Part shown: positions 1 to 64,000 of the stretch, piece by piece | Layout of the letters: the number at the start of each line of letters is the position of its first letter | Numbering within the stretch: the first letter of the stretch is position 1 | Assembly: GCA_000004695.1 (NCBI GenBank) | Contig: CM000151.3 | Coordinates: 6,720,001-6,784,000 of the forward strand | Direction of reading: 5' to 3' | Length of the DNA stretch: 64,000 bases | Origin: Dictyostelium discoideum | Taxonomy: Eukaryota | Program-made: the position numbers and the translations under genes | The notes under the pieces: model-generated | Told to the model about the DNA's origin: nothing | The model's database searches: none | Seen by the model: only the letters and a program-made list of their open reading frames with translations

Positions 1-251
1 AAATAAAATTTTTTTTAATTTTTTCTTTACAAATTATTATCATCATAATTTTTTTTTTTTTTTGATTGACTAAATTATAATTTTTTTCTTTGGATTGGAT
101 TAAAATTTTTTCCAATTTTTCCAAAAATGGAGTTTTTTTTTTTTTTTTATTTTTTTTTTTTATTTTTTTTTTATTTATTTTTTTTTTTTTTGAATTTTTT
201 TTTTTTTTTTTTTTTTTTTTTTGAAAAATTTATATTAATTCCACAGACAAC

Positions 252-1431
<1,180 letters not shown>

Positions 1432-2282
1432 AACATAATAAAGAAGTTTCTTGAAATTTACCTAAATCGCCTAGTTTTTTTTTTTTTTTTTTTTTTTTTT
1501 CGACTGGATATCAATTATTGATAGAGAATCTATGGTTCATTCAAGTATGGAAATACAATTTCAAATAATCAATTCACCTATTATCCATCTGAAATTAATG
1601 GCTTAAAACCTTAAACAGATTATGTTCAATTTAATTGTGAAAATATTGATTCACCAAATAAAGCAGCCACTACAACTATATCAATTTCCTTTTTCTTTTC
1701 TATTTATTAATAATATAATTGTTTCGTTTTCTTATATTTTAATTTTCATTTAATAAAATATTATTATTTTAATTTAATTTTTCACTTTTTTTTTTTGAGT
1801 GTCCAATTATTTTTTTTATTTTTTTTATTTAAATAATTCAATAGTAAATGGTAATTTATATAATTTACTATTTAATTATTTAATTTATAAAAAAAAAATA
1901 ATAAGAATCTGGATTCAAAGTAGAATTTTTTTCATTTCCGAGCCAGTAATCATTTTTTTTTTTTTTTTTTTGCGATTTCCTGGGAAATAAGGAAAAAAAA
2001 AATAATAAAAATAAGTGTCTTGGTGAAGTTTTTCTTTAGGAATTGGGAAAAATGAGAATTGGAAAAAAAAAAAAAAAGAAAAAAAAAAAAAAATAAAAAC
2101 TAAATAAATAAATATTTTTCTCATTTGACATTGAAAGAAAAGTTTAGAAAAATGAAACATATATTATTTTTAGTTTTATTGGTTTTAAGTTTTACAGAAA
2201 AATGCCTGTAAATATGATTTATTATTTTTTACAATTTTATTTTTATTTTTATTTCTAATCACCATAATTTTTTAAATCTTAG

Positions 2283-2768
2283 TCTTTTAACATTTATTTT
2301 TATTGTGGATATCAATATAATATAACCATTGAAACAAATAACCCTCCAATTACCCAAATATCAGGACATACCAATTTTAATATAATTGTTCCAATGACAT
2401 TTAATTCTACACACTATAGTATGGAGCTTTCATCATATTTTACAAGTTATCAAAGTTCATTCAATGTAATGGTAAGTTTTAATAGATTCGAAAGTACAGC
2501 TCAACATGTTTTTACAATTATGCCTCCAAATTTCGAAGGTGTCAAATCAATCAGTAACGATTTAACTCAATTTGAAATAATAGGAAATGGACTTAAACAT
2601 AACAATTTTTACAATTTTTTAAAAGATATTCGATGTGACCAAGATATGAGTTTTGATCCAAGTAAGGAACGTTTTGTGTGCTATTCAGCTTTTTCAAATA
2701 GTTGTTTTAGTTTTGGATATTCCAATAAATTTTTTAATTTAACTAACCAATATTTTTTTTTCTGCTGG
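2283..2768 (+). CDS. Putative internal exon of an uncharacterized, possibly secreted, protein. An upstream signal-peptide-like exon at 2152..2208 (MKHILFLVLLVLSFTEKC) may belong to it, but the splice phases do not reconcile
   Basis: Open frame from the AG acceptor at 2281-2282 to a GTATGT donor at about 2769; Cys/Asn-rich; no recognisable family. Confidence 0.2.
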
Positions 2769-4083
2769 TATGTATGCATTAAAAGTATTTTAATTAAAAT
2801 AAAAATAATTTTTTCTTTATTTGATTAACAATTTTAAAAATATTAGTACCCACTATAAATTCAATTGAAAGAATAGGTTCATTTTTACTTATTGATGCAG
2901 AATTCCATTGTCAAAACTATGTGGATAGTATTAGAAAAGGTATTTCCATAGGAGCAAGAATTATATGGTTCACTCGAGAATGCAAATAGAAATTCAAAAA
3001 CACAATACACATTTGATCCAGAATCATATGATTTCTCTATGTGCTTAGAGAATGATAATTACAACATCTCTTTGATTTCTGATATTAAATCTCAAACAAA
3101 TTATTCAAGCCATGTTATATTGTGAAAAAGGTTATAGTAATGAACTTAGTAACAAAGATATCTACAATTTCCTTATTCTCTTTTATATTTATTTTATTAA
3201 TATAAAAACCTCAATAATGTAATAAATAAAATATTTTTAATAAAATTTAATATACATATATCTTTTTTTTTATTATTTTATTTTGATTTTAAGGTGTTTT
3301 TTTTTTTTTTTTTTTAAAATATAATAAACATTAATAATTTTCAACAAAGGTTGAAATTTCCACAATAGAATAAACATTAATAATTAAAATAGATTATTTT
3401 AATGTTATGTTTTAGCTGATCTTACAATTTCTCCACGAATACAAGTAGTTCAAATCGCAAAAGACTAATAGATTTTAATCTGTTTAATTTTTTTTAAAAG
3501 GGTAAAAAAAAGATTGTTAATTTAAAAAAGATTTGTCTCTGTTCCCCTTAATATTATGAATGATCTTTTTTTGTAGCACCATAATGATTTTTTTTTATTA
3601 TTTATTAATCAAAATGTTTATCCATTAAAGTAAATAAACAGTAATTAATAAGTTAATTTATGAATTTTTAATTTTTTTGAAATAAAATTATTTTGATTTA
3701 GATTTAAATACAGATATTTTATTATAGATCATCTAATCAGAATTTTGATTTTTTAAAAAATATGTTGTTCCTATTATTGCTGTTAATGTTTTTTTTACAG
3801 AGTTAATTCTAAATTTTTTGCTTTTTTAATATATTCTAGAGTGGCTAGTTTGTACCATTAGTTGAGAAGGGTTGGGAATGATAGCTTTTCACCTGTAGAT
3901 GGTTTGTCGTTATATAATTCCAGAAATACATTATTCGTGAACATAAGGAACAAAATCAAACAGCTCAGAATATCTGGATGATTAACCAATTGACGCACGC
4001 ATAAGGAACAAAATCAATAATGGTACGAAATTCACAAACAAGATGCAAAAACTCCAATGACAGGAAAGTTCTAATTTTGAAAG

Positions 4084-4129: not shown

Positions 4130-4203
4130 CGAGACCATCAGGGGTCGAACCTGAGACCTACCGGTTCGTAGCCGGTCGTTATATCCAACTAAACTATAGT
4201 CCC
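4130..4203 (-). tRNA. tRNA-Arg (anticodon ACG)
   Basis: Reverse complement reads GGGACTATAGTTTAGTTGGATATAACGACCGGCTACGAACCGGTAGGTCTCAGGTTCGACCCCTGATGGTCTC. Acceptor stem GGGACTA/TGGTCTC has 2 G-U pairs. Anticodon stem ACCGG/CCGGT with loop CTACGAA (U33, ACG, A37). T-arm TCAGG-TTCGACC-CCTGA. A T5 run follows on the minus strand. Confidence 0.55.
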
Positions 4204-6245: not shown

Positions 6246-7358
6246 TTAATTATTTTTATTATTGTTATGCCATTTCATAGCAATATATGGATCCCACATT
6301 AAACCAGTTGCAGACATAGCAATATCAGCACCAGAATTTAAAAAGTCATCAAAATGCTCAGGTTTGACAATACCACCACAACCCAAAAGTTTTAATTTAC
6401 TATTTTGTTTCTTAATGATTGAAGAAGCTGTTGAAACCCAATCTAAAGCAGCAGAACGAATTGGAGCACCACAAACACCACTTGTTAAACGAGAAGCACC
6501 CAATGATGGTTCACCAGTGATTTTATCGGTGACTTTCATTGATAAAGTATTGATACCAGCAATTGCGGCAACGCCAGCTCTTTCAGCTTGTTGGAATAAT
6601 CTTTCCATTTTTTCCAAGTCATCCATAACACCAACTTTAATAATGAGTGGAATATTCTTACTCGATAACTCTTTGACCAAAGTTGAAGAGATTTCATAGA
6701 CTGCATCTGGATTATGATAGATTTGACCCTCGCCAGTGACAACATTTGGACAACTATAATTTACTTCAACCATTTTTGCACCAGCATCACATGCAATACG
6801 AACTGTATCAACAAAATCTTGAAGAAAGTCATGTGCACTACTTGCGGTACCTGTAATTGATACGATCATTGATTGACCTGAACCTAAATAACTATGTGCC
6901 AATGCTATATCCTTATAGAGGTACTCTTTTCCCATACTTGGCATACCAAATGAATTGGTAATTGCTAATTGATCCATTGTGGTTGGAATGGTTTGAGTTG
7001 CATGTAATGTTGAACCACTATCTGATTTTGTAAATTGTTTATCCTCACTTTCCAAATCTAAATACATAACATTTGGTACTGGATGACCAAAATGTTCGTG
7101 ACTTCTAATGGTCTTATATGTTGGTAAATCAAATCCTGCTTCCAATGCAAATTTAACCCATTGACTATTTAATAATGGTCCTGCTGGTACACCAATTGGA
7201 CTTGCTAATTTTTGACCTAAGAAATCGATATATTTACTTGGATCTTTATTATCATTTCTATCTACTTTTTTATATCCTTCAATGAATGGTCCATTCTCTA
7301 AATTATCTTCCCAACTTTTATTAATATCATAAATTGGTTTATTAATTGGCCATTCCAT
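6246..7358 (-). CDS. Class-1 dihydroorotate dehydrogenase family flavoprotein (DHOD/DHPD-like TIM barrel), 370 aa, single exon
   Basis: Motif 'VEVNYSCPNV' matches the class-1 DHOD active-site signature N-x-SCPN with a Cys base. 'LLGCGGIVKPEHFDDFLNSGADIAMSATGL' matches the C-terminal FMN phosphate-binding G-T/C-GGI region. Overall collinear with Lactococcus PyrDa-type DHOD. Confidence 0.7.
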   Translation of the reverse strand: MEWPINKPIYDINKSWEDNLENGPFIEGYKKVDRNDNKDPSKYIDFLGQKLASPIGVPAGPLLNSQWVKFALEAGFDLPTYKTIRSHEHFGHPVPNVMYLDLESEDKQFTKSDSGSTLHATQTIPTTMDQLAITNSFGMPSMGKEYLYKDIALAHSYLGSGQSMIVSITGTASSAHDFLQDFVDTVRIACDAGAKMVEVNYSCPNVVTGEGQIYHNPDAVYEISSTLVKELSSKNIPLIIKVGVMDDLEKMERLFQQAERAGVAAIAGINTLSMKVTDKITGEPSLGASRLTSGVCGAPIRSAALDWVSTASSIIKKQNSKLKLLGCGGIVKPEHFDDFLNSGADIAMSATGLMWDPYIAMKWHNNNKNN

Positions 7359-8928: not shown

Positions 8929-11900
8929 ATTTTAGGTATGGTTGGTTATAATGAATCAATTTCAGATCCATCATATACTGGACAAATTTTAGTATTCTCA
9001 TTTCCATTGATTGGTAATTATGGTGTACCATCATTTAGAGAAAGAGATCCAGAATCAGGATTAGCAGTAAACTTTGAATCAGATAAAGCACATGTTCAAG
9101 CAATTATTTGTTCAGAGTATTGTGATGAATATTCACATTGGGCAGCAGAGAAATCACTTTCAGAGTGGTTAAAAGAATCAAACATTCCAGGTTTGTACGG
9201 AATCGATACACGTGCTTTGATCACCAAAATTCGTGAGAAGGGCTCTCTAAAAGGAAAGGTAATCATTGGTGACTTTGATGAAAGTAAATTGGAGTTTGAA
9301 GATATTAATTTACGTAATTTGGTTGCAGAAGTTTCAACCAAAGAGATTAAAGAATACAAAGCTGCAGAGAACAATAAGAAAACTGGCGAAAAAAGAAAGA
9401 ATAAAAAAGTGATCGTACTTGATTGTGGTATTAAAAATAATCAAATCCGTTGTTTATTAAATCGTGGTGTAGATCTTAAAGTTGTACCATGGGACTACGA
9501 TGTGGTTGCAAACGAATCAATCAATGATTACGATGGTGTTTTCATTAGTAATGGTCCAGGTGATCCAAGTCTTTGTGGAAAAGCAATTGAAAACATTAGA
9601 AAAGTATTGGCATTGCCAGTTGCCAAAGCAGTATTTGGTGTTTGTATGGGTAATCAATTGTTAGGTTTAGCCGCTGGTGCACAAACTCATAAAATGGCCT
9701 TTGGTAATCGTGGTCTCAATCAACCATGTGTCGATCAAATTAGTGGCCGTTGTCATATCACCTCACAAAATCATGGCTTTGTTATCGATTCAAATTCTTT
9801 ACCAGCTGGTAGTGGTTGGAAAACTTACTTTATAAATGCAAATGATGCCTCCAACGAAGGTATCTATCATGAGAGTAAACCATGGTTCTCTGTTCAATTC
9901 CATCCAGAAGCTATGGCAGGTCCAACCGATACTGAATATCTTTTCGATAATTTCGTTGATAACGTTTGTGGTGAACAACAACATAAATCACCAATGAATA
10001 AATCTAAAATCATCGATTGTCCAAAAGGTATCAATAAAGTTTTAATTTTAGGTTCAGGTGGTCTTTCAATTGGTCAAGCTGGTGAATTTGATTATTCTGG
10101 TTCTCAAGCTATCAAAGCACTCAAAGAAGAAGGTATTAAAACCATTTTAATTAATCCAAATATCGCAACAGTTCAAACTTCACCAGGTCTTGCCGATAAA
10201 GTTTATTTCCTTCCAGTTAATGCTTCCTCTGTTCAAAAAGTAATTGAAAATGAAAATCCAGATGGTATTTTAGTAACTTTTGGTGGTCAAACAGCTTTGA
10301 ATTGTGGTATTGAACTCTATAAATCTGGTATACTCGAGAAATATAATTGTAAAGTATTGGGTACTCCAATTGAAACTATCATTGCCACTGAAGATAGAGG
10401 TATCTTTGCAGAGAAATTATCAGAAATCAATGAACGTATCGCACCATCAATGGCTTGTAATAGTTTAGAGGAATCTTTGATTGAAGCAGAGAAAATTGGT
10501 TATCCAGTCATTGTTAGAGCTGCCTATTGTTTGGGTGGTTTAGGTTCTGGTTTCGCCGATAATAAAGAACAACTCACAGCATTGGTCACTGAAGCAATGG
10601 CAACCTCTTCACAAGTTTTGGTTGAAAAATCACTCAAAGGTTGGAAAGAAATTGAATATGAAGTTTTAAGAGATAGTAAAGACAATTGTATCACCGTTTG
10701 TAATATGGAAAATTTCGATCCACTCGGTATTCATACTGGTGAATCAATCGTCGTTGCACCATCACAAACACTTTCAGATAGAGAATATCAAATGTTAAGA
10801 GAAACTGCAATTAAAACCGTTCGTCATCTTGGTGTAATTGGTGAATGTAATATTCAATATTCCCTCAATCCATATAGCGAAGAATATTGTATCATTGAAG
10901 TTAATGCACGTCTTTCACGTAGTTCAGCATTGGCAAGTAAAGCAACCGGTTATCCACTTGCTTTCATCTCTGCCAAAGTTGCTTTGGGTTATGATTTAGC
11001 AGCATTAAGAAATACAATCACAAAGAAAACTACAGCATGTTTCGAACCTTCATTGGATTATTTAGTTGTTAAAATGCCACGTTGGGATTTAAAGAAATTC
11101 ACTCGTGTTTCCAATAAAATTTCATCATCAATGAAATCAGTTGGTGAAGTTATGTCAATTGGTAGAAAATTTGAAGAAGCAATTCAAAAAGCAATTAGAA
11201 TGGTTATGGATGGTGCAGTTGAAGGTTTCCAAGCTGGTGTTTTCCCAACCTCTGATGAAGAACTTGAACATCCAACTAATAATCGTATTTTAGTATTGGC
11301 AAGTGCTTTCAAAGATGGTTATTCCATTGATAGAGTACATCAATTAACAAAGATTGATAAATGGTTCTTAACAAAACTTAAAGCAATCATCGATTTAGAG
11401 AATCATTTATCAACCTATAAAGAACCATCACAAATTCCATCAGAGATTTTGAAATTCTCAAAACAACAAGGTTTCTCTGATAAACAAATCGCCAGAGCAG
11501 TTGGTACCACAGAATTGAATGTTAGAGATTATAGAAAGAAAATGGGTATCATTCCATGTACAAAACATATCGATACAGTTGCTGCAGAATTCCCAGCTCA
11601 AAACAATTATCTTTACATGACTTACAATGGTGAAACCAATGATGTAAATATCAATGAAAAATCTTATATCACATTAGGTTCAGGTTCATATCGTATTGGT
11701 AGTAGTGTTGAGTTTGATTGGTGCGCAGTTAGTTGTATTCGTACATTACGTAGTTTAGGTTTGAAATCAATTATGATCAATTTCAATCCAGAGACTGTTA
11801 GTACTGATTATGATGAATGCGATTATCTCTACTTTGAAGAACTCTCATTGGAAAGAGTATTGGATATCTATGAACGTGGTGGTCCAAATTCAAATCATGG

Positions 11901-14900
11901 TGTAATATTATCAGTTGGTGGTCAAATTCCAAACAATTTAGCCATTCCATTATCACGTTGTAATGTTAAAGTTTTAGGTACTCATCCAGATATGATTGAT
12001 TCAGCTGAAAATCGTTATAAGTTCTCACGTCTTTTAGATACCATTGGAATTGATCAACCACTTTGGAAAGAATTAACAAGTGTTTCCGATACAAAAGATT
12101 TCTGTGAATCTGTTGGTTTCCCATGTTTAGTTCGTCCATCTTATGTACTCTCTGGTGCTGCTATGAATGTAGTTCACTCTTCACAAGATCTCGAAACATT
12201 CCTTACTGAAGCTGCTGCAGTTTCACGTGATCATCCAGTTGTCATTTCAAAATTCATTCAAGAAGCTAAAGAGATTGAAATTGATGCTGTCGCCGATAAT
12301 GGTCGTATTGTTTTATTCGCAATTAGTGAACATGTTGAAAATGCCGGTGTACACAGTGGTGATGCTACCATTGTTTGTCCAGCTCAAGATCTTGATGATG
12401 CCACCATCCTCAAGGTTGAAGAAACCGCTAGAAAGATCGCTGAAGCACTCAATGTCAGTGGTCCATTCAATATTCAATTCATTGCTAAAAACAATGAAAT
12501 CAAAGTTATCGAATGTAATTTACGTTGTTCACGTTCTTTCCCATTCGTTAGTAAAACATTAAATATCAATTTTATCGAATTAGCAACTAAAATCATCATT
12601 AAACATCAATATGATCTTCCAGTTGTAAATCCAATCAATTATGTTGGTGTCAAAGTACCACAATTCTCATTCATTCGTCTTAAAGGTGCAGATCCAGTTT
12701 TAGGTGTAGAAATGGCATCCACTGGTGAGGTAGCATGTTTTGGTAATACTCGTGAAGAAGCTTACGTCAAGGGTTTAATTTCTACTGGTTTCAAAGCACC
12801 AGAAAAAAATGTACTCCTTTCAATTGGTTCATTCAAAGAGAAACATGAATTCCTTCCATCAGCTCATAAATTAATTAAATTAGGTTATACCTTATTTGGT
12901 ACTCAAGGCACTGCCGATTTCTACAGTGAAAATGGTGTTCCAGTAACTCAACTCAATTGGGATGAAGAGGATTTAGGTGAAAATGTAATTCAAAAGAAAA
13001 TGACTGAAAATACAATTCATCTCTTCATTAATTTACCATCAAAGAATAAATATCGTCGTCCATCTTCATTCATGTCAAGAGGTTATTCATTACGTCGTGT
13101 TGCTATCGATTTCCAAGTACCACTCATTACCAACATCAAATGTGCTAAATTATTCGTCGATTCTTTATCCTACATGAAAGGTCCAATGCCAATTGAAAAT
13201 GTTGATTGGAGAACAAGTAATAAGATCATTCGTTTACCAGGTTTAGTTGATGTTCATGTTCATCTTAGAGAACCAGGTGCCACTCATAAAGAAGATTGGG
13301 ACAGTGGTACAGCAACTGCATTAGCTGGTGGTTTCACCATGGTTGGTGCTATGCCAAACACTAATCCAGCCATTATGGATGATGCATCATTTGAACTTTG
13401 TAAATCATTGGCAGCCTCAAAAGCACGTTGTGATTATGGTATTTTCATTGGTGCCACTTTTACCAATACAACAACCGCTGGTAAATTCGCATCCGATGCC
13501 ATGGGTATGAAAATGTATCTCGAAGAAACCTTTGCTCCACTTCCATTAAAAGATGATATCAACGTTTGGAGAGATCATATTATGAATTGGCCAGGTACAA
13601 CACCAATTTGTGTTCATGCTGATGGTAGAAATCTTGCAGCAATTCTCTTATTAGGTTGGATGTATGATAAACATATGCATGTTTGCCACGTTTCACATAA
13701 AGAAGAGATTGATATTATTCGTGATGCAAAGAAACGTGGTATGAAATTATCATGTGAAGTTTCACCACATCATTTAACCCTTTGTGATAAAGATATTCCA
13801 CGTATTGGTGCTGGTCAATCTGAAGTTCGTCCAAAACTTGGAACTGAAGAAGATTTGAATGCACTCTGGGACAATATCGATTACATTGATATGATTGCAA
13901 CCGATCATGCTCCACACACTTGGGAAGAGAAATGTAGCGCCAAACCACCACCAGGTTTCCCAGGTCTTGAAACTTCATTACCATTGATGTTAACTGCCGT
14001 CCATAATGGTAGAATCACCATTGAAGATTTGGTAATGAAAATGCACACAAATCCAATTCGTATTTTCAATCTTCCAGAACAACCAGATACTTACATTGAA
14101 GTTGATATGGAACAAGAATGGACCATTCCAAAGAAACCACTCTATTCAAGATGTGGTTGGACTCCATTCGAAGGTCTTCAAGTACGTGGTAAAGTTGTTA
14201 AAGTCGTACTTCGTGGTCAAATCGCTTTCATTGATGGTAAAATCATTGCACAAAAAGGTTTTGGTTTAAATTTACGTTCAAAAGAATATCAAGTTGAAAA
14301 AGAAAGATTACTCAATACTACCAAACCAATTTATGATAAAATCCCAACTGTTCAATCAACAAAGAATCAAACTACAAATATTACTTCACCATCATTAATT
14401 AGTGATTCACCAAATAAAGCCATCAATAAGATTAAATCTACTTCCACTTCTACAACTCCAAATACTCAAGAACAATCAACACAACATTTACCATTAGTTG
14501 GATCAAATCTTGCATCAGCTGTATTAAATAAAAAAGAAGATACACTCCAAACTGCTTTCAATATCTCAGATAATTCATTGGCAGGTAAACATATTTTCTC
14601 AGTTAAACAATTCAATAGAAAACAATTACATGCCTTATTTGGTATTGCTCATGAAATGAGAATTTTAGTTAAGAGATCAGGTGGTTCAGATTTATTGAAG
14701 GGTAAAGTTTTAGCTACTCTCTTCTATGAACCAAGTACTCGTACTCAATGTTCATTCACTGCTGCCATGCAAAGATTAGGTGGTTCAGTTGTCACTGTTG
14801 ATAATGTATCATCATCAGTTGCCAAAGGTGAATCAATCGCTGATACCATTCAAACTTTAGAATCCTATTGTGATGCAGTTTGTATGAGACATCCAGCTGT

Positions 14901-15498
14901 TGGTTCAGTTGAAAGTGCAATTCAAGTCGCCAAAAAACCAATCATTAACGCAGGTGATGGTGTTGGTGAACATCCAACTCAAGCTTTATTGGATGTTTTC
15001 ACAATTCGTGAAGAATTAGGTACCGTCAATGGTTTAACTATCACCGTTGTTGGTGATCTTAAACATGGCCGTACCGTTCATTCTTTGGTTCGTCTCTTAG
15101 CAAACTATCAAGTTAAAATCAATTATGTCTCACCATCTTCACTCTCAATGCCAACTGAAATCATCAAAGAACTCAATGAAAAAGGTATTGAACAAAAAGA
15201 ATATACAAATATCGAATCTATCCTTCCAACTACCAATGTACTATATGTAACTAGAGTTCAAAAAGAACGTTTCCAAAGTATTGAAGAATATGAAAAAGTT
15301 AAAGATTCTTTCATTATCACTCCACATACTCTCACTAAAGCTTCTGATAATATGATCGTTATGCATCCACTTCCAAGAATTAATGAAATTAGTCCAGAAG
15401 TTGATTCTGATCCACGTGCTGCTTACTTTAGACAAATGGAAAATGGTTTATATGTCCGTATGTCACTTTTAGCTCTTGTATTTGGTGCTGGTGTTTAA
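8694..15498 (+). CDS. pyr1-3: CAD multifunctional pyrimidine biosynthesis protein (GATase-CPSase large subunit-dihydroorotase-aspartate transcarbamoylase); 2 exons (8694..8808, 8936..15498), 2225 aa
   Basis: Exon 1 '[30 protein letters not shown]' joins '[20 protein letters not shown]' via a phase-1 GTAAGT intron, collinear with the CAD N-terminus. DHOase motif [15 protein letters not shown]; ATCase [13 protein letters not shown] near the C-terminus. The computed length equals that known for Dictyostelium PYR1-3. Confidence 0.9.
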
Positions 15499-15924: not shown

Positions 15925-22325
<6,401 letters not shown>

Positions 22326-25194: not shown

Positions 25195-25484
25195 ATGTCA
25201 TCAAACCATGATTTTGATATTGAAGAAAAGATAGCTTCATTGATTTTAGCATTTAGTCATAAAAGAGAAGTGATTTTAGAAGTTTTAAAAAGAAATAACT
25301 ATGGAATTGATGCATCGGCTTTGGAATTATCTGAAATGCCAGTAGTAGAACAACCACCATCACACCAACCACCACAATTTAGACAATCAAATAATAATAA
25401 TAATAATAATTATCCATCAAATAGACAAATTCCACAACAACCACCACCACAATATCAACAATATCATCAACAACAAAAACCACC

Positions 25485-25530
<46 letters not shown>

Positions 25531-25547
25531 CCACAACAACAACAACC

Positions 25548-25578
<31 letters not shown>

Positions 25579-27564
25579 GATAAAGAAAGAAGTGAATTAA
25601 TAAAAGATATTGAAAATTTAATTGGAAATAATAGTTTAGATCAATCTACAATTTATGCAGTTTATCAACAATCTAATAAATCAATTGATCAAACCATTAA
25701 AACTATTAAAGAATTAACATTTGATCCAAATGAAGAACTTAAAAAGATTGAAGCTGAAATTGAAATGAGAAAGAAAGAAGAGGAAGCAATGCTTGAAGCA
25801 AAGAAACAAAAAGAAAAACAAGAACAATTGAAGCTTACTGAACAACAACGTATTGAACGTGAACAAAAACAACGTATGGAACGTGCTGAACGTGAACAAC
25901 AACAACGTCTTCGTGAAGAATATGAAAGAAGATTAAATATGGAACTTCAAAAGAAATTGGAAATCGAGAGACAAGAACAAGAATTGACCAGAAGAAAACA
26001 ATTGGAACTTGAACAAATTATGATCCTCAAGAAACAAGAAGAGGCAGGACTCCGTATTCTTCAAGAACAAAGAGAACATCAAGAAAAAGTTCGTCTTGCT
26101 AAAGAGAAAGAGGAGGAATTAAAAAAAAGAACTATGGAAGAAGAAGCAAGGAGATCGGCAATTCGTGCACAAGAAATTGCAAGAATGTCTAAACAACAAC
26201 AACTCGAAGAGGAAGCCAAACGTTTGGAACAACAAAAGAGACAAGAAGCAGAGTTTATACTTGCATTGGAAACCAAATCCAAAGAGGCCAACCTTATGCA
26301 ACAACAAGCCTTTTTCTTAAAACAAAAAGAACAAGAGAATCTCCAATTGATTGAAAAACAAAAGAAAGAGATCTATGAAAATCAAATTCAAATTGATATT
26401 TTGAAACTAAAAGAAATGGAATCTCAAAATCAAAGCAAATCAATGTTGGAGAAAGCTCAACAAGAAATTCAAGACCTCAAGAAGAGATTGGCTGATGGTG
26501 AAACCAAATTCAATCAAGAAACCGTAAAGAAAACCTCTGATGAAGAAGAGCTCAAAAAACAAATTCAAGAACTTGAGCAACAAAAAGATGTACTTCGCAA
26601 ACAAATTCAAGAACTTGAGGTTGTTCAAAAACCAAGATTGGAGCAATTGGAACAAGAATTGAAAAATAAAGAATTGGAACTTCATAACACCATCATCTCT
26701 AATCAAGTCTCTTTGGCTTCAAGTCTCGAAGAAAACTCCACCGATACCATTGTTGTTCATTGGAATTTGGAAAATAAATTTGAAGATGGTACTCCATATT
26801 GGATTGGTGTTTTCCCAACTCACCAACCAAAGAATGATCGTTATCTCTCCTTCAAACACATAGAAGGTAAAGAGGGTTTGGTTAGTTTCCCATCCATTAT
26901 TCCAGGTCATTATGAAGCTCGTCTCTTTAAGGATAAATATACTCTTATTCAAAAGTCTAGCTCCATTCAAGTTGGTCCATCCGTTACTTTATCAGCTCAT
27001 GTAATTGGTGATGAAATCTCTGTCACCTATAAAGTAAACTCTGAAACTGGTGCCAACACTAAAGATTGGATCGGTATTTATCATCCAATTCAACGTAATA
27101 AACATTACATTGAGTCATTGTATGCTTCAACCTCTGGTACCATCACTTTCAAATCACCAAGAATACCAGGTCTCTATGAGATTCGTTACTTTTTACATCC
27201 AACCAAATATAATGAACAAGCAAAGATCTCATTTGAAATCATTGATAACGATAAGATTCAAGTCCTTAGTGAAAGTCAATCTTGTCTTACCCTCTCACCA
27301 GATCAAGAGTTTAGAGTTGAATATGTTGTAAACACAACCGCTCCTTCCTCTTCCGATTGGGTTGGTATTTTCCCTGTTGATGAAATTAATAACAAACATT
27401 ACATTCATTCCAAATATACAACTTCCGCTGCATCTGGTGAATTAACCTTTAGAGCTCCACTTAAGACTGGTGATTATGAAGCAAGATTCTTTTCTTATGC
27501 AAAAGGAAAATATATTGCTCACAAGGTTTCAAATAAATTCTCTGTGTTTCCTCAATCAAATTAA
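25195..27564 (+). CDS. Coiled-coil protein with a UBA/CUE-like N-terminal helix bundle, a poly-Gln tract, a long ERM/myosin-like charged coiled coil, and three C-terminal SKICH-like repeats (signature DW[IV]G[IV][FY]); 789 aa
   Basis: Single ORF. Three ~95-aa repeats each contain 'YWIGVFP', 'DWIGIYHP' or 'DWVGIFPV' followed by 'G.YEARFF', resembling the SKICH domain of CALCOCO/NDP52/TAX1BP1 (DWIGIF..YYTF). Confidence 0.55.
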
Positions 27565-28877: not shown

Positions 28878-39543
<10,666 letters not shown>

Positions 39544-40196: not shown

Positions 40197-41306
40197 ATGA
40201 AAGTAATATTTTTATTAATATTATTAATTTTATTAAAAATTGTTAAAAGTTATGAATGTAATTGTATATTAAAAGAATATTGTAAACCATTAGAAGTTGG
40301 TGAGAGAATAGAATTTATTGGATTTTCATTTAATTCAACAGGAAATTATTTGAATTATGATTATTATTCAGTTACAACTATTGCAATTTCATATCAATCT
40401 AATTACGATATACCAGAAGAATTAGTTTGTAAATCACATGAAAATAGAGTAAGATTAGTTTGGTCTGCAATTATTTCAAATAATCAAATATCAAATGAAA
40501 CCTATAGAAATCAATTTATTGATTCCATTGTTGAGACAATTCAAAAGGAAAATATGGATGGAGTAATATATGAATTAGATAATCCAAATGATTTAACCAT
40601 TGAAAATAGTGATTACTTTACAGAAATAATTAAAAAAACATATCAAAAATTGAAATTGATCAATTGGAATTATCAAATTTCTGCAAAATTTCCATTTTCA
40701 CCAAATATTGATTTTTCGTATAATTACCCTGAAATTTCATATTACAGTGATTATTTAGTTATAATGGATTATAATATTGGTAGTAGAGTTTCAAATGATG
40801 GTAACTATTGTTTAGCAGGCTCAAATTCACCAAATCCTTTGATTGAGCAAGGTGTTCACAATTTCACATCAATGGGTATTCCTGGTGAAAGATTGGTTTT
40901 AACATATCCATGGTTTGGTTTAGATTTTATTTGTTTCAATGGTAATTTATCAAGTGTAGATTGTTTAGTTACTAAAAGTGAAAATGTTAGTTGTAATGAT
41001 ATCAATTCAATTTCAAATCAAATAAGTTATGGTGAAATATTAAAGATTCTAAATGATGATAACATTATAAATGGTGGAATAAATTGGAATTCTCAAAGTA
41101 AATCAGTATTTTTCAATTATTATGATAAACAAGGTATCCTTCACCAAATTCATTTTGATAATCCAAAATCACTCTTTATAAAAGTATTTTTAACAAAAAG
41201 ATTAAAAGCAAAAGGTATTGCTGCTCAAAGCATGGATAATTTGGATTTTAATGATTTAGTAAATTCATATAATATGTTTGATACAATGGCTTATTTTTTC
41301 ATGTAA
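40197..41306 (+). CDS. Secreted glycoside-hydrolase-family-18-like (chitinase-like / CHID1-like) protein, 369 aa
   Basis: N-terminal signal peptide MKVIFLLILLILLKIVKS. 'MDGVIYELDNP' resembles the GH18 / CHID1 catalytic-region motif (DG[FI]..E). Single ORF. The family assignment is tentative. Confidence 0.4.
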   Translation: MKVIFLLILLILLKIVKSYECNCILKEYCKPLEVGERIEFIGFSFNSTGNYLNYDYYSVTTIAISYQSNYDIPEELVCKSHENRVRLVWSAIISNNQISNETYRNQFIDSIVETIQKENMDGVIYELDNPNDLTIENSDYFTEIIKKTYQKLKLINWNYQISAKFPFSPNIDFSYNYPEISYYSDYLVIMDYNIGSRVSNDGNYCLAGSNSPNPLIEQGVHNFTSMGIPGERLVLTYPWFGLDFICFNGNLSSVDCLVTKSENVSCNDINSISNQISYGEILKILNDDNIINGGINWNSQSKSVFFNYYDKQGILHQIHFDNPKSLFIKVFLTKRLKAKGIAAQSMDNLDFNDLVNSYNMFDTMAYFFM

Positions 41307-41549: not shown

Positions 41550-42644
41550 ATGGAATTAAAATCATTTACATTTAAAGTTTCAAATGTTAAAAAATCAAAT
41601 ATTGAAATAAAAGATTTAGATATATTTGATATAGTTAATCCAAAAGAAAATGAATTTATTCCACTTGCAGAAAGAAAACAAACACTTAGCTTTAATGATA
41701 AACCTCAAGAAAAAAGGATTGTAAAATCATCATTTACAAAACAATCTAAATATATTGGAATTAATTCATTTATAGTATCTGCAATAAAAGCATATTCACA
41801 TCATCATCACTTAGTGATAAGAGTTGATGATATATGGATGGCAATATTAAATCAATTTTCAATTTATGTTAATTCAAATGCAGAGATATTAAGAGAAAAG
41901 TTTGTTGATTTCAATGGAAAGAAAACATTGACAGTGACTAGTAATGTTCCAATTTTAAGTGCACCCCTTGATCAATTAACAATTCAAATGGCTGAAAATA
42001 TAAAATCAAATATTATTGATCCATCCATTAGAGATTTGATTATTGGTGATTTTAGTACAACTACAGAAAATGATCGAGTTGTATATTCTGCATCATTAAT
42101 GTCAACTTTTAAAAGTTATTTTGATTATAGGTATATGACATTTTGTGGTTTACCAAGTGTTACATTGCAAGGATCAACTGAAGATTGGTTAAATTTAAAA
42201 CAAAGAATTGAAAGATTAATTGATTTTGAAATTGATAGTAGTAGTAAGACAGGTGAAATGAAAGAATGGGTTAGTATGTTACATCCAATAATAGATCAAT
42301 TCATTTCCACTTCAATGGGTAAACCAAATATTGAATGGTGGAATCAGATCGCTGATAAAAAACAATCATCTGGTAGTGTAAATTTAACTGGTTGGATCAC
42401 TGTATTTTGTGTATATGATAAAAATGGTAAATGGATTGGTAAAAAAGACACAACAAATTCACAATGGTTAAGAATAAACTTTGATTCCATCCCATTAGGT
42501 TATCTATCAACTCCAATAACTTTAATAGATTTTGATAGACAAGAATATAAATGTGATCTATTATCTGGTCATATGGCAATTAATATTGATTTAAATGATC
42601 AAACAATTTTAAAACCATCATTAGATTGGGTAATTATTAATTAA
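41550..42644 (+). CDS. Hypothetical protein, 364 aa (no confidently recognised domain)
   Basis: Single uninterrupted ORF with normal Dictyostelium composition, flanked by A/T-rich spacers. Confidence 0.4.
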   Translation: MELKSFTFKVSNVKKSNIEIKDLDIFDIVNPKENEFIPLAERKQTLSFNDKPQEKRIVKSSFTKQSKYIGINSFIVSAIKAYSHHHHLVIRVDDIWMAILNQFSIYVNSNAEILREKFVDFNGKKTLTVTSNVPILSAPLDQLTIQMAENIKSNIIDPSIRDLIIGDFSTTTENDRVVYSASLMSTFKSYFDYRYMTFCGLPSVTLQGSTEDWLNLKQRIERLIDFEIDSSSKTGEMKEWVSMLHPIIDQFISTSMGKPNIEWWNQIADKKQSSGSVNLTGWITVFCVYDKNGKWIGKKDTTNSQWLRINFDSIPLGYLSTPITLIDFDRQEYKCDLLSGHMAINIDLNDQTILKPSLDWVIIN

Positions 42645-43232: not shown

Positions 43233-45975
<2,743 letters not shown>

Positions 45976-47312: not shown

Positions 47313-48566
47313 ATGAATTCCTACGCAGACGCGGCTAAAATGGCCAACCCCTCCACCCATATGGACGAGGCATCAGAGAACTTCATTAAGGAATTCTCCA
47401 CAAAAACAGCAGAGATAAAGGAGACCTACCCCAAATTATCAATAGGCCTCAAAGACATCTCCAAATACTGCGAGACCATATTGAACATGACTGCTCTCTC
47501 AACCTACGAGAAAAACAACGGATTCTACCCAATTACACTCGAATTCCCCAAAATGGATCTCATGGGGTTAGAAGAAATGAGAAAAACACTCTCAAACTAC
47601 GATATCCCAATCGACAAGATATACATAGGCAAAGGAACTAGAAAAACGATCCACCTGATGATTAAAAACGAACAATCTCTCCTAAATATCATTAGAGATA
47701 GAAGCAAATTGGGAACCTTCATCACCTCCAGTAGAGACTACCACGTCCTCACAGGAAGAGTAAGAATTCCAAGAGAAAAGGCAGGAATAGTGGACGCCCT
47801 CATCAAAACTGCCTTTGCAGAAGAAATACCCTATGCAATATACCATACTATATACTCCACCGACCACCTCCTAGTATTCGGTCTAATAGAATGCAAAATA
47901 GGCGATCAAATGAAATCTGGCCAACACAATACAGAAATCGCCAACTTTACCATCAGAACGGCCACCAAAACCTACTCCTCACAAAAGAAAAATAAGAAAG
48001 TAGAGTCAAACAACACGGAAGAACCATTAGAAGATGAGATGACAGATGATCCTCCCAACATCCAAAACAGGATAGCAATCAAATCCTCTCAACCAAAACC
48101 ACAACAACAAACATACAACCCAGCAAACAATAAGTCTGATAAACAATCAACCCAAGAGAAAAAAGCCCAATCAAAAAAGTCCTCTCAACCTCTTCCCCCC
48201 AAAAACCAAGCAGAATCTCAATCTGTCAAACCCACCACAACCACTACCACAACATCCAACGCCATCCAAAAAGACAATGCCAACAAAACGAGCACTAACA
48301 TCCATTCATCCTCGGAAAACAGAGAGAAGACACCAAACATCCCTCCATCACATAAACGCAAGAACGAGGAAATCCACTCAAACAACGAGGTCACCCAACT
48401 CTCACCAACAATAAACAGAAGCAACCCTTACATCCCATCCACCCCTAAGACACCTGTCAATAAAGAAAGGAAAGGAATCATTGAGAGCTTCATAGAGAGT
48501 ATCTACCCTTCACCATCCAAACCGCAGCTATACGACTCCCAAGAGGAGATCGATATCATCTCATAA
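47313..48566 (+). CDS. Retrotransposon ORF1 protein (417 aa, Ser/Thr/Gln-rich C-terminus)
   Basis: Single ORF immediately upstream of, and overlapping, the endonuclease-type ORF2 start. Present in two copies in the window. Confidence 0.55.
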   Translation: MNSYADAAKMANPSTHMDEASENFIKEFSTKTAEIKETYPKLSIGLKDISKYCETILNMTALSTYEKNNGFYPITLEFPKMDLMGLEEMRKTLSNYDIPIDKIYIGKGTRKTIHLMIKNEQSLLNIIRDRSKLGTFITSSRDYHVLTGRVRIPREKAGIVDALIKTAFAEEIPYAIYHTIYSTDHLLVFGLIECKIGDQMKSGQHNTEIANFTIRTATKTYSSQKKNKKVESNNTEEPLEDEMTDDPPNIQNRIAIKSSQPKPQQQTYNPANNKSDKQSTQEKKAQSKKSSQPLPPKNQAESQSVKPTTTTTTTSNAIQKDNANKTSTNIHSSSENREKTPNIPPSHKRKNEEIHSNNEVTQLSPTINRSNPYIPSTPKTPVNKERKGIIESFIESIYPSPSKPQLYDSQEEIDIIS

Positions 48567-51542: not shown

Positions 51543-51614
51543 GGGGAGATCCGAGAATCGAACTCAGGACGCTACCACCCAAAGGTAGCATTATACCACT
51601 TAACTAATCTCCCA
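51543..51614 (-). tRNA. tRNA-Pro (anticodon UGG)
   Basis: Reverse complement reads GGGAGATTAGTTAAGTGGTATAATGCTACCTTTGGGTGGTAGCGTCCTGAGTTCGATTCTCGGATCTCCCC. Acceptor GGGAGAT/ATCTCCC. Anticodon stem CTACC/GGTAG with loop TTTGGGT (U33, UGG, G37). T-loop GTTCGATTC. Confidence 0.75.
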
Positions 51615-51685: not shown

Positions 51686-51759
51686 TGCCTCAGGCCGGGA
51701 TCGAACCAGCGACCTTAAGATCTTCAGTCTCACGCTCGTACCAACTGAGCTACTAAGGC
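51686..51759 (-). tRNA. tRNA-Phe (anticodon GAA), second copy, inverted relative to 46972..47045
   Basis: Exact reverse complement of the tRNA-Phe sequence at 46972..47045. Confidence 0.85.
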
Positions 51760-52154: not shown

Positions 52155-57982
<5,828 letters not shown>

Positions 57983-61001: not shown

Positions 61002-64000
61002 AATTTTGGAATTTACTAATAGTCATAAATTTTAATTAATTTTTATTATTATTTATAGCCAAAGGTGAAGAAGATGAATTATATAGTGAGCATTTTATTG
61101 AGATAGATAAATTAATAAAACAAGAGCAAGAAAAAGAAGAAAATGGTGGATTTTCATTACCAAAATGGCCAGCTAGTAGTACTATAAACAACAATAGTAC
61201 TCAAAATTTATTTAGTAATTTTATGAGTGATAGTAGTAGTAGCATAAATAGTGATATTAATAGTAATTATACAAGAGATAATAATGGAATGTTTATAGTT
61301 AGAACAGATTTAAATACAGATATACCTTCATCACATAAATCAACCATCTATAGTAAACAACAACAATCACCAAGACATCAAGATATAAATAGTAATCATT
61401 ATTCAATGACTTATGATAGTAGTTTACTTAGTGTTAGTGGTAGTAATGCAAGTAGTAATTGTAATACATCAGCTTCATCATCAGTAAATAGTTGTAATAA
61501 TTCAATTGGTAATTTAAGTAAAGTTTTTAATTTAAATTCTTCAACAAAGAGTTTAAATAACAACAACAACAATAATAATAATAATAATAATAATATGGAG
61601 ACAATTTCAGGTTTTAATAATATAATGAAAATTGATAATCTTATAAATCATGATACAAATAATAATAATAATAATAATAATATGATAACATCACCATCAC
61701 TAACTACAAATACAACAACTACTACAACAATGACATCAAATAATAGTACACCAATTAGATCACCATCACCACCAAAAACTCCACAACATCAATCAGTATT
61801 AATATCACCAATGACACCATATGATGTTTATAATTCTTATAAATTTGATAAATTGAAAACAACGCCAACATCACCAACATCACCAACTAAATCAACAAGA
61901 TTTAAGGAACCTCTATTACCAAGATCAAATAATAATTTTAATAATAACAACAACAAGAATAGTACAATGAGTTTATCAGGAATGATGAGTGGAACATTCT
62001 CAACATCACATTTATCAAGTTGGGTTTGGGTTAAAAATAAACATAGTATTGTTATCATTGGTCCAACTGGTATTGGTAAATCATTTTTATTAAATACTTT
62101 ATTACATTCAACTTTTACACCTTCTTTAAATTCAATTAGACCAATATTAGGTAATCATAGATTATCTTTAAAACCACAACATGATACAACTTCAACTTCA
62201 ACAACTTCAACAACAAATACAATTTCAACCGATCATATTATGTCAAATAATGAATACTTTTTATTAGATAAATTAAAAACTAAATTAATGAATATAAGTA
62301 AGAGTCAAATTGATCAAAAGATGATATTGGATCAATCATTTTATCAATCAATAAATTGGGATAAAGAAAGGGATAATGAATTTGAACGTGTTTATACTAC
62401 CAGTCAATATTTAACTAAAAAGATACCTCAAGTTAATGATAGTCATGCTTTTATATTACCACAAGGTAGATTGGGTCCAAATCAACAATTTAAATTCACC
62501 TATGGTGCTATCTGTGAATTAAATGTTGAATTCCTACAAGAGAGTGAAGTTCGTGTCATACTTTGGGAATTACATCAATATTCAGAGGATAAAACCATAC
62601 CAATGAATCCAAATAGATTACAATCATTGCAATGGGTTTACTCATCGGTTGTTGATGGTGCAACTTTTGATTATTCAAATCAAAGTAGTTCAAGTAGTAC
62701 GAGTAGTATCAATAGTGGTACCAGTGGTAGCAATAGAATGGTTAGAGTGGTGGAAGATATTAACTCCTATTGGGATATACCCATTAAAGAGAAATTTAAA
62801 AAGTTATTTGGTAAAAGAATTCAATTTAAAGGCTTGGGTAAAGATCACAATATCGATAGAATTTATGTTCGTGAAAAGGTTAAAGAGGTTTTATCAGTTT
62901 ATGGTTGTATTTTAAATTTATTACATATCAAATTACCTTCAAGTGTCCTATTCAATAAACGTGAAATCACAATGATATCCGATGATTCTAAAAGAGGTAA
63001 CATTTCAAAGTTTACAATCACTCGTATTTTGGATGATGCTGATCAAATTTTATTATCAATTGATTATCGTGGTTTATCTGCTGATCTTGCTGATTTATTA
63101 TTAGCTTCAAAATTCACTCAAAAGTTTTCTGCTGATGATGGTTCTATTCAATTCCTTGAATTAGGTGAACATCGTCAATTTCAATTACAACAACAACTAC
63201 AACAAAAACTTCAACAACAACAAGTTTCATCACCACAACCACAACCACAACAACAACAACAACAGCAACAAGTTCAACAATGTCAAAGTCAACAATCACC
63301 ACAACAATGCCAAAGCCAACAATCACCACAACAATGCCAAAGTCAACAATCACCACAACAATGCCAAAGTCAGCAATCACCTCTACAACAACAACAACAA
63401 CAACAACAATCACCACAACAATTACAATCACCACAACAACTTCCAGATATTCATTCATTCGTTATTAATCAACTTAGAAAATTATTTAAAGATGCAAGAA
63501 ATATTTCAAATATTCATAGAATATTAGATTCTTTTAAAATTATTAAAATTAAAGTAAGTTAAAATATTTTTCAAAAAAATATATATGCATTATAAATTAA
63601 TATTAACTTAATTTTTTTATTATTATTATTATTTTATATAAAGCCTTTATTATTTTCATCAATTCATTTAAATAAATCAGTACCACCAGAGTATAAATTA
63701 AAAGGATATTCAAGTATTAGACAATTGAAAGAGATATCAAATGTACCAGTTTTAATAAGATTAATGCATGTTTCAAATAATTCAACATGGACAACTCAAC
63801 ATAATTTATTGGATAAATTTAAACAAGGTATTGCAAAGAAACCTTCAATTTTAAATCATTTAGTTGAACAACAACAACAACAATACCAACAACAAGATGC
63901 ATTAAATTCAACTGGATCAAAACCAATTCCAACTGATAAAGAATTAAATGATTTACAAGAACAATTAACAAATTCATTTAAAGATACTTTAAACGTTAAT
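60883..64000 (+). CDS. P-loop (GPTGIGKS) NTPase-like protein with Ser/Asn/Thr-rich regions and a C-terminal Gln-rich repeat; partial, continues beyond the window. Tentative exons 60883..60952 and 61059..63553, then a GTAAGT intron and a further exon from ~63641
   Basis: Main ORF 61223..63562 is open upstream to the AG acceptor at 61057-61058. A candidate first exon, ATG 60883 with C|GTAGGT donor, joins in phase 1. Walker A motif 'SIVIIGPTGIGKSFLLNTLL'. The 3' end 'KIKIKVS' lies at a GTAAGT donor and coding potential continues to 64000. Confidence 0.4.

Follow-up and report, generated by a model that had tools for sequence, protein, structure and literature searches.

The metazoan CALCOCO proteins (NDP52/CALCOCO2, TAX1BP1, and CALCOCO1) possess a single N-terminal SKICH domain, a β-sandwich with a DWIG[IL][FY]-type strand, followed by a long coiled coil; a LIR/CLIR lies between the two, and ubiquitin-binding UBZ zinc fingers are present at the C-terminus. 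NDP52 and TAX1BP1 bind NAP1 and FIP200 through their SKICH domains, which act as protein-binding platforms (PMC9582228; PDB IDs: 5z7l, 7eaa), and in mammals SKICH-FIP200 binding supports ATG8-independent autophagy (PMC9582228). The CUET proteins, yeast Cue5 and human Tollip, are autophagy receptors that bind ubiquitin through a CUE domain and act as ubiquitin-Atg8 adaptors (PMC8394947). They harbor no SKICH domain. HECW1 and HECW2 are HECT E3 ligases with a single HECW_N domain. In SKIP (INPP5K) and PIPP (INPP5J), one C-terminal SKICH module accompanies a phosphatase domain and has a targeting, not a catalytic, role.

A 789-residue protein encoded in the Dictyostelium discoideum window (the whole 64,000-nucleotide stretch of DNA that was analysed) brings together elements of these systems in an order of its own (Table 1). 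Its ORF, proposed in the initial annotation, is real. The ATG start codon sits in a AAAAAATG context, the DNA upstream is AT-rich and gene-free, and the frame needs no introns. A library search returned 1462 matches at E≤1e-3, with full-length orthologues across Dictyostelia and other Amoebozoa (Dictyostelium citrinum, Tieghemostelium, Polysphondylium, Synstelium, Acytostelium, Heterostelium, Clastostelium, and Rhizamoeba) that are 53-94% identical, as measured over the C-terminal query region. The D. citrinum orthologue is 94% identical, and its first and last residues coincide with those of the D. discoideum protein. Across at least eight amoebozoan genera, the orthologues begin and end alike and arrange their domains in one order: a first CUE-like module, a poly-Q/P linker, a second CUE-like module, a charged rod of ~330 residues, and three SKICH-superfamily domains. 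The gene is conserved across Amoebozoa, and its product has the predicted architecture of an elongated adaptor. Environmental relatives harbor two to four canonical CUE/UBA-like modules (‘FPDL’, ‘MFG’) and three to four SKICH-like repeats; since they keep an identical plan, the coupling of CUE and SKICH modules appears to be under selection. By sequence inspection, nothing like a signal peptide is present at the N-terminus of the amoebozoan protein, the CUE helix coming first. The orthologues already carry the automatic database name “SKICH domain-containing protein”; in the literature searched for SKICH together with Dictyostelium, Amoebozoa, or CUE, neither the protein nor its architecture is described. 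With the entire protein as query, phmmer retrieved from the PDB only low-complexity and coiled-coil noise, such as the poly-Q of Nup155. The neighbouring genes encode a VWA protein, a MyTH4-FERM myosin, a GH18 protein, and a DUF4419 protein; they give no functional hint, as expected in a eukaryote.

Table 1. Features of the gene and its product (positions in the window).
Feature	Residues	Position	Strand	Evidence
Single-exon CDS	789 aa + stop	25195..27564	+	ORF list, start context, full-length orthologues
CUE-like module 1	~8-48	25216..25338	+	Orthologue profile A4, hhalign, Pfam CUE in orthologues
Low-complexity Gln/Pro/Asn-rich linker	51-127	25345..25575	+	Composition (53% Q, 17% P)
CUE-like module 2, degenerate	~133-175	25591..25719	+	Profile A3, hhalign, Pfam CUE in orthologues
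Charged, putatively α-helical rod	177-505	25723..26709	+	Composition; windowed heptad and charge-pair analysis
SKICH-like repeat 1 (YWIGVF)	506-594	26710..26976	+	Repeat HMM; Pfam SKICH 16.6 bits; all-β model
SKICH-like repeat 2 (DWIGIY)	595-684	26977..27246	+	Pfam SKICH 24.1 bits alone
SKICH-like repeat 3 (DWVGIF)	693-786	27271..27552	+	Pfam SKICH 25.7 bits; HECW_N 17.2 bits; repeat HMM

The N-terminus was initially described as UBA/CUE-like on the basis of a string found at residues 14-45. This segment is a divergent CUE rather than a UBA, recognisable only via more canonical orthologues, and a second CUE-like module had been overlooked. A Pfam scan of residues 1-58 and 128-194 yields no CUE match, neither module rising above any threshold; the top ubiquitin-related match in these segments is UBA_NBR1_C (E 0.05). 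Against CUE structures, profiles built from dictyostelids only reach Tollip at E 0.7 with module 1 and nothing with module 2, so that the CUE assignment depends on intermediate sequences. Mixed orthologue profiles of module 1 (A4) match the Tollip CUE domain (PDB ID: 1wgl) at E 4e-6, and those of module 2 (A3) the CUE structures of Tollip, CUEDC1, and Vps9. Taken together, the mixed profiles reach the Tollip, CUEDC1, Cue2, and Vps9 CUE structures, and 1wgl is the first-ranked PDB match for both modules. Using hhalign, the dictyostelid and non-dictyostelid versions align with probabilities of 96.6% (module 1) and 96.4% (module 2). The Pfam CUE (PF02845) threshold is passed, at 23-73 bits, by orthologues P0007, P0008, P0013, P0016, and P0024 for module 1 and by P0025 and P0051 for module 2. 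By transitivity through these intermediates, both modules appear homologous to bona fide CUE domains.

Canonical CUE domains contact ubiquitin through an MFP and a di-Leu motif, as in the Vps9 and Cue2 complexes. At these positions module 1 displays AFS and LS, retaining the Phe and the first Leu, and module 2 displays LIG and IK, retaining neither motif. Within dictyostelids Phe20 of module 1 never varies, and across all aligned orthologues it hardly does; Leu45 is invariant in both sets. Both modules are kept in position in every orthologue examined. Ubiquitin binding by these modules may be weak or lost.

The linker between the two modules, also overlooked at first, is conserved among orthologues neither in length nor in sequence. 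The rod that follows had been taken for a Glu/Lys/Gln-rich coiled coil of ~350 residues. The composition stands (59% E/K/R/Q, with 2 Pro and 2 Gly in 329 residues); a coiled coil over the whole rod is not accepted, since a crude heptad test (home-made and weak) gives a z of only about 1 overall. Residues 177 to ~415 are ER/K-like with weak heptads, and residues ~415-490 display a moderate heptad signal. Much of the rod looks like an ER/K single helix, and the weak heptad signal over most of its length weakens the case for dimerisation.

The three C-terminal repeats are real, with pairwise identities of 27-36% within the protein, which terminates three residues past the last of them. They measure about 90 residues rather than the ~95 first given. 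The DW[IV]G[IV][FY] signature, said to recur three times, occurs in its strict form twice (residues 624-629, nt 27064, and 721-726, nt 27355); its relaxed form, W[IV]G[IV][FY], is found three times, repeat 1 contributing WIGVF at residues 536-540 (nt 26800), whereas a shuffle of the C-terminal 285 residues is expected to yield 0.0008 occurrences. This strand aligns with ‘KDWIGIF’ of NDP52. The proposed resemblance to SKICH is borne out by Pfam SKICH (PF17751), which matches the whole protein in three stretches with 39.1 bits (cutoff 23.4); taken one by one, repeats 2 and 3 pass the cutoff and repeat 1 stays below it, and the alignment is restricted to positions ~11-57 of the 103 in the profile. 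Orthologues reach 42-56 bits, and in some relatives the alignment extends over positions 7-101. Between species, repeats of the same index are 37-46% identical, versus 27-32% for different indices, which indicates that the triplication predates the divergence of the sampled amoebozoan lineages. The triplet is the most conserved part of the protein (53-61% identity in dictyostelids). A six-frame scan of the window reveals no further SKICH-like repeats. A word-indexed homologue search with the C-terminal region and with 5-row and 45-row repeat profiles returned four short metagenomic fragments only (P0001, P0002, P0155, and P0156), which are useless for phylogeny and served as rows in structure prediction.

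Searched against the PDB, the repeat-family profile retrieves NDP52, TAX1BP1, and HECW2 only, the NDP52 SKICH domain ranking first. The AlphaFold model of repeat 2 is a seven-stranded β-sandwich that superposes on solved SKICH domains. Its closest Foldseek match is the NDP52 SKICH domain (TM 0.72-0.76), including its complexes with NAP1 and with the RB1CC1/FIP200 coiled coil (PDB IDs: 5z7l, 7eaa). In a single-sequence model of all three domains (pLDDT 69), repeat 1 is predicted as all-β, in blocks of mostly pLDDT 72-88; a fold search with that model found only generic tandem FN3 arrays and was undiscriminating, and the single-repeat model was used instead. The profile and model matches together place the repeats, as far as prediction goes, in the SKICH/HECW_N superfamily (PF17751/PF16562). 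Profile support thus exists for SKICH and CUE-type folds, whose absence the initial annotation had named as evidence against itself.

The nearest sequence relatives outside the CUE-rod-SKICH family, however, are bacterial. Human NDP52 scores 24.9 bits against a profile derived from eukaryotic repeats, covering half of it, whereas bacterial copies score 22-73 bits each (mostly 35-73) over nearly its full length. They occur as 4-12 tandem copies in presumably extracellular proteins with signal-peptide-like N-termini and catalytic domains (subtilase, β-helix, glucose/sorbosone dehydrogenase (GSDH), PKD). One of these proteins was traced to a Pyrinomonadaceae MAG locus, the others being metagenomic. 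In sequence, the repeats are much closer to these secreted bacterial tandem repeats than to metazoan SKICH domains, and a SKICH-type fold alone therefore does not imply autophagy. Modules of this kind in secreted bacterial enzymes generally serve as stalks or bind ligands.

The protein shares with the CALCOCO proteins the SKICH β-sandwich with its characteristic strand, along with an extended helical region and a module of the ubiquitin-binding type. The order is nevertheless reversed, as first noted, the helical region preceding three C-terminal SKICH-like domains; CUE-type modules are found in place of UBZ zinc fingers, the canonical LIR is absent, and sequence similarity is only 15-19%, over half of the profile. 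The protein is not a CALCOCO family member. It resembles the CUET proteins in possessing a CUE-type module as candidate ubiquitin reader, but has no C2, TBD, or Atg8-interacting motif, and its CUE modules, a duplicated pair at the N-terminus, have degenerated at the MFP/di-Leu positions. In contrast to HECW1 and HECW2, it lacks HECT, C2, and WW domains. The C-terminal position of the SKICH module recalls SKIP and PIPP, although three such domains are present here and no phosphatase. The bacterial arrays are alike in their tandem arrangement, but possess neither CUE module nor charged rod.

Tentatively, and at somewhat short of even chances, the protein is best explained as a ubiquitin-linked cytosolic bridging adaptor bearing candidate CUE modules and a SKICH triplet. 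The triplet would be the main partner-binding platform. The rod would serve as a spacer, partly an ER/K-type single helix and partly a short dimerising coiled coil adjoining the repeats. The CUE modules would contact ubiquitin, a ubiquitin-like protein, or a ubiquitin-pathway partner; given the decay of the contact motifs, this binding would probably be weak in dictyostelids. Platform, contact, and spacer together would make the protein a tether between ubiquitin-marked material, or a component of the ubiquitin system, and the partner of the SKICH triplet, most plausibly within degradative sorting by autophagy or by the endolysosomal pathway. This reading is weakened by the sub-threshold CUE modules with their degenerate contact motifs, and by the secreted bacterial enzymes in which the nearest relatives of the repeats outside the family reside.

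The label of selective autophagy receptor first given to the protein is not established. A search for the canonical LIR ([WFY]xx[LIV]) finds none in residues 1-505; all eight matches fall within the SKICH-like repeats, where the conserved W-[IV]-G strand accounts for several of them, and a non-canonical CLIR-type site is compatible with the sequence. No zinc-finger family appears in a Pfam scan at E≤10, and the repeats are nearer to the bacterial arrays. That the protein is a true NDP52/TAX1BP1-type receptor with its parts reversed, whose CUE modules capture ubiquitinated cargo and whose triplet recruits an Atg11/FIP200-like scaffold, or Atg8 by a non-canonical site, so that a canonical LIR is unnecessary, appears rather unlikely. 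The kinds of parts are CALCOCO-like, NDP52 with its NAP1 and FIP200 complexes is the best solved match, mammals offer the precedent of ATG8-independent autophagy via SKICH-FIP200 (PMC9582228), and CUE-based receptors exist in Cue5 and Tollip (PMC8394947). Against this weigh the missing motif and zinc finger, the degenerate CUE contacts, and the bacterial affinity of the repeats, as well as data from D. discoideum: the putative FIP200, AreB, did not interact with Atg1-complex subunits and behaved like a negative regulator, and the authors list no FIP200 orthologue and doubt a functional one (PMC4554924). Furthermore, their Atg8 two-hybrid library screen describes no protein with CUE/SKICH-type domains, and its two unnamed, reportedly LIR-bearing hits (minimal regions 1-556 and 1-280) show no obvious fit to this ORF (PMC4554924).

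A structural scaffold, in which the rod and triplet function, for instance in membrane or cytoskeletal anchoring, and the CUE modules are non-binding relics, is likewise improbable. Decay of both CUE signatures is specific to dictyostelids, where the triplet remained conserved, and long helices of the ER/K type commonly serve as spacers. A precedent for anchoring comes from the 5-phosphatases SKIP and PIPP, which their SKICH domains direct to membrane ruffles. The near-invariant Phe20 and invariant Leu45, however, as well as the positional retention of both modules, speak for more than relics, and the multiplication of canonical CUE modules in more distant relatives argues that the ubiquitin-type module is important to the family. 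A bolder version of the receptor reading is quite unlikely: CUE-rod-SKICH proteins with three SKICH domains would be ancient, Amoebozoa-wide receptors for ubiquitin-dependent autophagy/xenophagy, whose SKICH domains, derived from bacterial extracellular tandem repeats, bring in the initiation machinery with no need of a LIR.

It is very unlikely that the repeats are ligand-binding (e.g., glycan) or stalk modules acquired from or shared with bacteria, resembling metazoan SKICH only through a common ancient β-sandwich superfamily with no functional carry-over. The tandem copies of secreted bacterial-type proteins and their higher, near-full-profile scores fit that proposal, but the amoebozoan protein has cytosolic-type modules and no signal peptide-like N-terminus, and among solved structures sequence profiles find only SKICH and HECW_N. 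Finally, a chance ORF or annotation artefact, conceivable in AT-rich, low-complexity DNA (GC in the window is 17-40%, mostly 20-30%) where many poly-Q/N tracts create spurious ORFs on both strands, is already refuted: in at least eight amoebozoan genera, both termini and the succession of domains are conserved.

For the study of xenophagy and ubiquitin-dependent quality control, Dictyostelium is among the leading models. In the literature searched, p62 is the sole D. discoideum autophagy adaptor to figure (including PMC4554924). Combining ubiquitin-reader-type modules with three SKICH-type platforms, the bridging adaptor proposed here is an obvious candidate for a missing Dictyostelium adaptor. 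Should it act in autophagy despite lacking a LIR, it would speak to the evolution of SKICH-mediated, Atg8-independent cargo targeting; were such proteins LIR-free receptors throughout Amoebozoa, SKICH-based receptor logic would either predate Metazoa or have arisen twice. If it is not autophagic, SKICH-type domains would be generic binding modules, and architecture alone a poor predictor of autophagy. In either case, the link between eukaryotic cytosolic repeats and bacterial extracellular arrays is relevant to how the SKICH/HECW_N superfamily originated.

The ORF under study encodes a 789-aa protein composed of two N-terminal CUE-like modules, a central rod, and three C-terminal SKICH-like repeats (see table). 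It starts with an ATG in the AAAAAATG context, preceded by AT-rich gene-free DNA, in a window with a GC content of 17-40% and abundant poly-Q/poly-N tracts. Its first and last residues match the ends of the Dictyostelium citrinum orthologue (KAN0015698.1), to which it is 94% identical across the C-terminal 285 residues. This near-identity suggests D. discoideum, or a very close relative, as the origin of the window. The short opposite-strand ORFs within it are low-complexity mirror images.

The repeats are ~90 aa long (n=3), slightly shorter than the ~95 aa of the initial annotation. The strict signature DW[IV]G[IV][FY], counted there three times, occurs twice, in repeats 2 and 3, and it is the relaxed W[IV]G[IV][FY] that is present in all three (0.0008 occurrences expected from shuffling). 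Outside this W-[IV]-G strand, the repeats have G..F..P..PG.YE.R.F in common. A six-frame scan of the window found no further copies. The resemblance to SKICH is borne out: the whole protein scores 39.1 bits against Pfam SKICH (PF17751, cutoff 23.4), in an alignment covering only the first half of the model. Scored singly, repeat 2 (24.1 bits) and repeat 3 (25.7 bits) clear the cutoff, and repeat 1 (16.6 bits) does not. The HECW_N score of the protein is slightly below threshold. When all PDB sequences were searched with a profile built from 45 repeats of eukaryotic members of the family, significance was reached only by the SKICH domains of NDP52 (E 1.4e-4) and TAX1BP1 (~1e-3) and the N-terminal domain of HECW2 (3e-3). 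Three independent lines, these two among them, agree that the repeats are SKICH-like. This assignment is not new, since UniRef automatically names the Tieghemostelium, Polysphondylium, and Heterostelium orthologues "SKICH domain-containing protein".

At E<=1e-3, an exhaustive library search returned 1462 relatives. Among the top 150, about one in four has the amoebozoan architecture, and many of the remainder combine N-termini resembling signal peptides with the kinds of catalytic domain usual in secreted bacterial proteins. In such bacterial-type relatives (library proteins P0010, P0015, P0021, P0028, and P0037), subtilase, right-handed beta-helix, glucose/sorbosone dehydrogenase, and PKD domains are followed by 4-12 tandem repeat copies, which Pfam also labels SKICH/HECW_N. 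Against a eukaryote-only profile, the bacterial-type repeats score 22-73 bits each (mostly 35-73) over nearly its full length, and human NDP52 scores 24.9 bits across half of it. These scores place the repeats in a branch of the SKICH/HECW_N superfamily that is made up of tandem repeats and lies much nearer to the arrays of bacteria than to the SKICH domains of metazoans. Taken alone, a fold of the SKICH type cannot count as an autophagy signature. SKICH, a eukaryote-associated family, appears to possess a large prokaryotic extracellular branch.

Repeat-specific signatures are conserved ("HQPKN[DE]RY", "RNK.Y...PTKYNEQ", and "NNK.Y...KGKY" in repeats 1 to 3), and in comparisons between species, repeats of the same index share 37-46% identity and those of different index 27-32%, which dates the triplication to before the split of the sampled amoebozoan lineages (Dictyostelia, Clastostelium, and further relatives). 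The Heterostelium album orthologue (P0009, PPL_05037) has a truncated third repeat and a 458-aa C-terminal extension (residues ~734-1191) absent from all other orthologues; a fused gene model is the probable cause.

The N-terminal string quoted in the initial annotation is present in the protein, and its UBA/CUE-like reading stands by way of orthologues: in the protein alone, no ubiquitin-related Pfam match is significant (best UBA_NBR1_C, E 0.05). The alignment of full-length orthologues reveals two helical modules kept in position, separated by a variable poly-Q/P linker. Those of distant orthologues resemble textbook CUE ("IFGGQDITASVIRTVLSSNENKFDEAVDSLLNM", "MFGGDLSNSVICTVLESNKGELVDTVDTLLNM"), and distant relatives, among them Clastostelium, Rhizamoeba, and a number of environmental sequences, score above the Pfam CUE threshold (23-73 bits). 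Profiles including distant orthologues match the CUE domains of Tollip (E 4e-6 and 3e-4), CUEDC1, Cue2, and Vps9; dictyostelid-only profiles of both modules, used as a control, found no CUE structures. Together with the hhalign probabilities between dictyostelid and non-dictyostelid modules (96.6% and 96.4%), these intermediates identify both modules as divergent CUE homologues. Canonical CUE domains contact ubiquitin through Met-Phe-Pro and di-leucine motifs, as in the Vps9 and Cue2 complexes. At these positions, module 1 displays A-F-S and L-S, the retained Phe and Leu being conserved in nearly every aligned orthologue, and its binding to ubiquitin is plausible. Module 2 displays L-I-G and I-K, both motifs being lost in all dictyostelids, and its binding to ubiquitin is doubtful.

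The rod comprises 59% E/K/R/Q, two Pro, and two Gly, which makes a long helix very likely. The Glu/Lys/Gln-rich composition initially described is confirmed, and the coiled coil is only partly supported: in a crude windowed test, heptad enrichment of hydrophobics is absent from residues 177 to ~415 (z about 0), and a moderate signal (z 2-2.8) is found at residues ~415-490, adjoining the repeats. By the same test, residues 177-345 are poor in hydrophobics (mostly 14-23%) and contain, in every 35 residues, 5-12 i/i+4 pairs of opposite charge, as is characteristic of ER/K single alpha-helices.

Other genes of the window include two steps of one pathway, adjacent and divergent in a eukaryote, and a HERC-like architecture with an embedded kinase, which is unusual. 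No Pfam match was obtained for ORFs 16351-18621, 47313-48566, and 61223-63562.

Features of the ORF protein (residues), of the window (nt), and of a bacterial relative
Feature	Position	Strand	Remark
ORF under study	25195-27564	+	
Module 1	residues ~8-48		CUE-like
Module 2	residues ~133-175		CUE-like
Rod	residues 177-505		
Repeat 1	residues 506-594		YWIGVF; WIGVF from nt 26800
Repeat 2	residues 595-684		strict signature at nt 27064
Repeat 3	residues 693-786		strict signature at nt 27355
Close bacterial relative	L001 (genomic locus) 2001-2921		Pyrinomonadaceae (Acidobacteriota) MAG JAMQPH010000712.1
tRNA Arg-ACG	4130-4203	-	
Dihydroorotate-dehydrogenase-like gene	6246-7358	-	head-to-head with next
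CAD-type multifunctional pyrimidine-synthesis gene	8938-15498	+	GATase, CPSase, amidohydrolase, ATCase
VWA-domain protein	19977-22325	+	
Probably N-terminal exon of next gene	28878-30356	+	ends with myosin-head-like start; very long poly-N tracts; (AAT)n tract yields poly-Ile/poly-Leu ORFs in other frames
MyTH4-FERM class myosin	31438-39543	+	directly downstream; motor second half, IQ, two MyTH4, RA-like, FERM
GH18 chitinase-like protein	40197-41306	+	
DUF4419 protein	41550-42644	+	
PH-ArfGAP-ankyrin protein	44308-45975	+	
tRNA Phe-GAA	46972-47045	+	
tRNA Pro-TGG	51543-51613	-	
tRNA Phe-GAA, second	51686-51759	-	73 bp from Pro-TGG
HERC-like ORF	52155-57353	-	single ORF, 1732 aa; RCC1 repeats, protein kinase, C-terminal HECT ubiquitin-ligase domain

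The ORF protein is experimentally uncharacterised and assembled from known kinds of parts. A literature search found no account of the pair of divergent CUE modules or of the ER/K-like rod, of how old the triplication is and how near the repeats stand to bacterial tandem repeats, or of a protein family with the CUE-rod-SKICH plan. NDP52 and TAX1BP1 use their SKICH domains as platforms for binding the proteins NAP1 and FIP200 (PDB 5z7l, 7eaa; PMC9582228), and CUE proteins include the ubiquitin-Atg8 adaptors Cue5 and Tollip (PMC8394947). With these precedents, the parts list matches a ubiquitin-linked bridging adaptor, a role that we propose tentatively, with a little less than even confidence. 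The SKICH triplet would be the main binding platform, the rod a spacer and possibly a dimeriser, and the CUE modules weak readers of the ubiquitin system. A true selective autophagy receptor is unlikely, since residues 1-505 contain no [WFY]xx[LIV] motif, no zinc finger was found in the protein, and the CUE contact motifs are degenerate. Furthermore, AreB, the putative D. discoideum FIP200, showed no interactions with the Atg1 complex in a study whose authors saw no clear FIP200 orthologue, and the Atg8 two-hybrid library screen of that study, two hits of which are unnamed, lists no protein described with these domains (PMC4554924). A structural scaffold retaining the CUE modules as relics is likewise unlikely, and a ligand-binding or stalk role, as in the bacterial repeats, is very improbable. 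Environmental relatives combine 2-4 CUE/UBA-like modules with 3-4 repeats, a variation which indicates that the coupling of CUE-type and SKICH-type modules is under selection.
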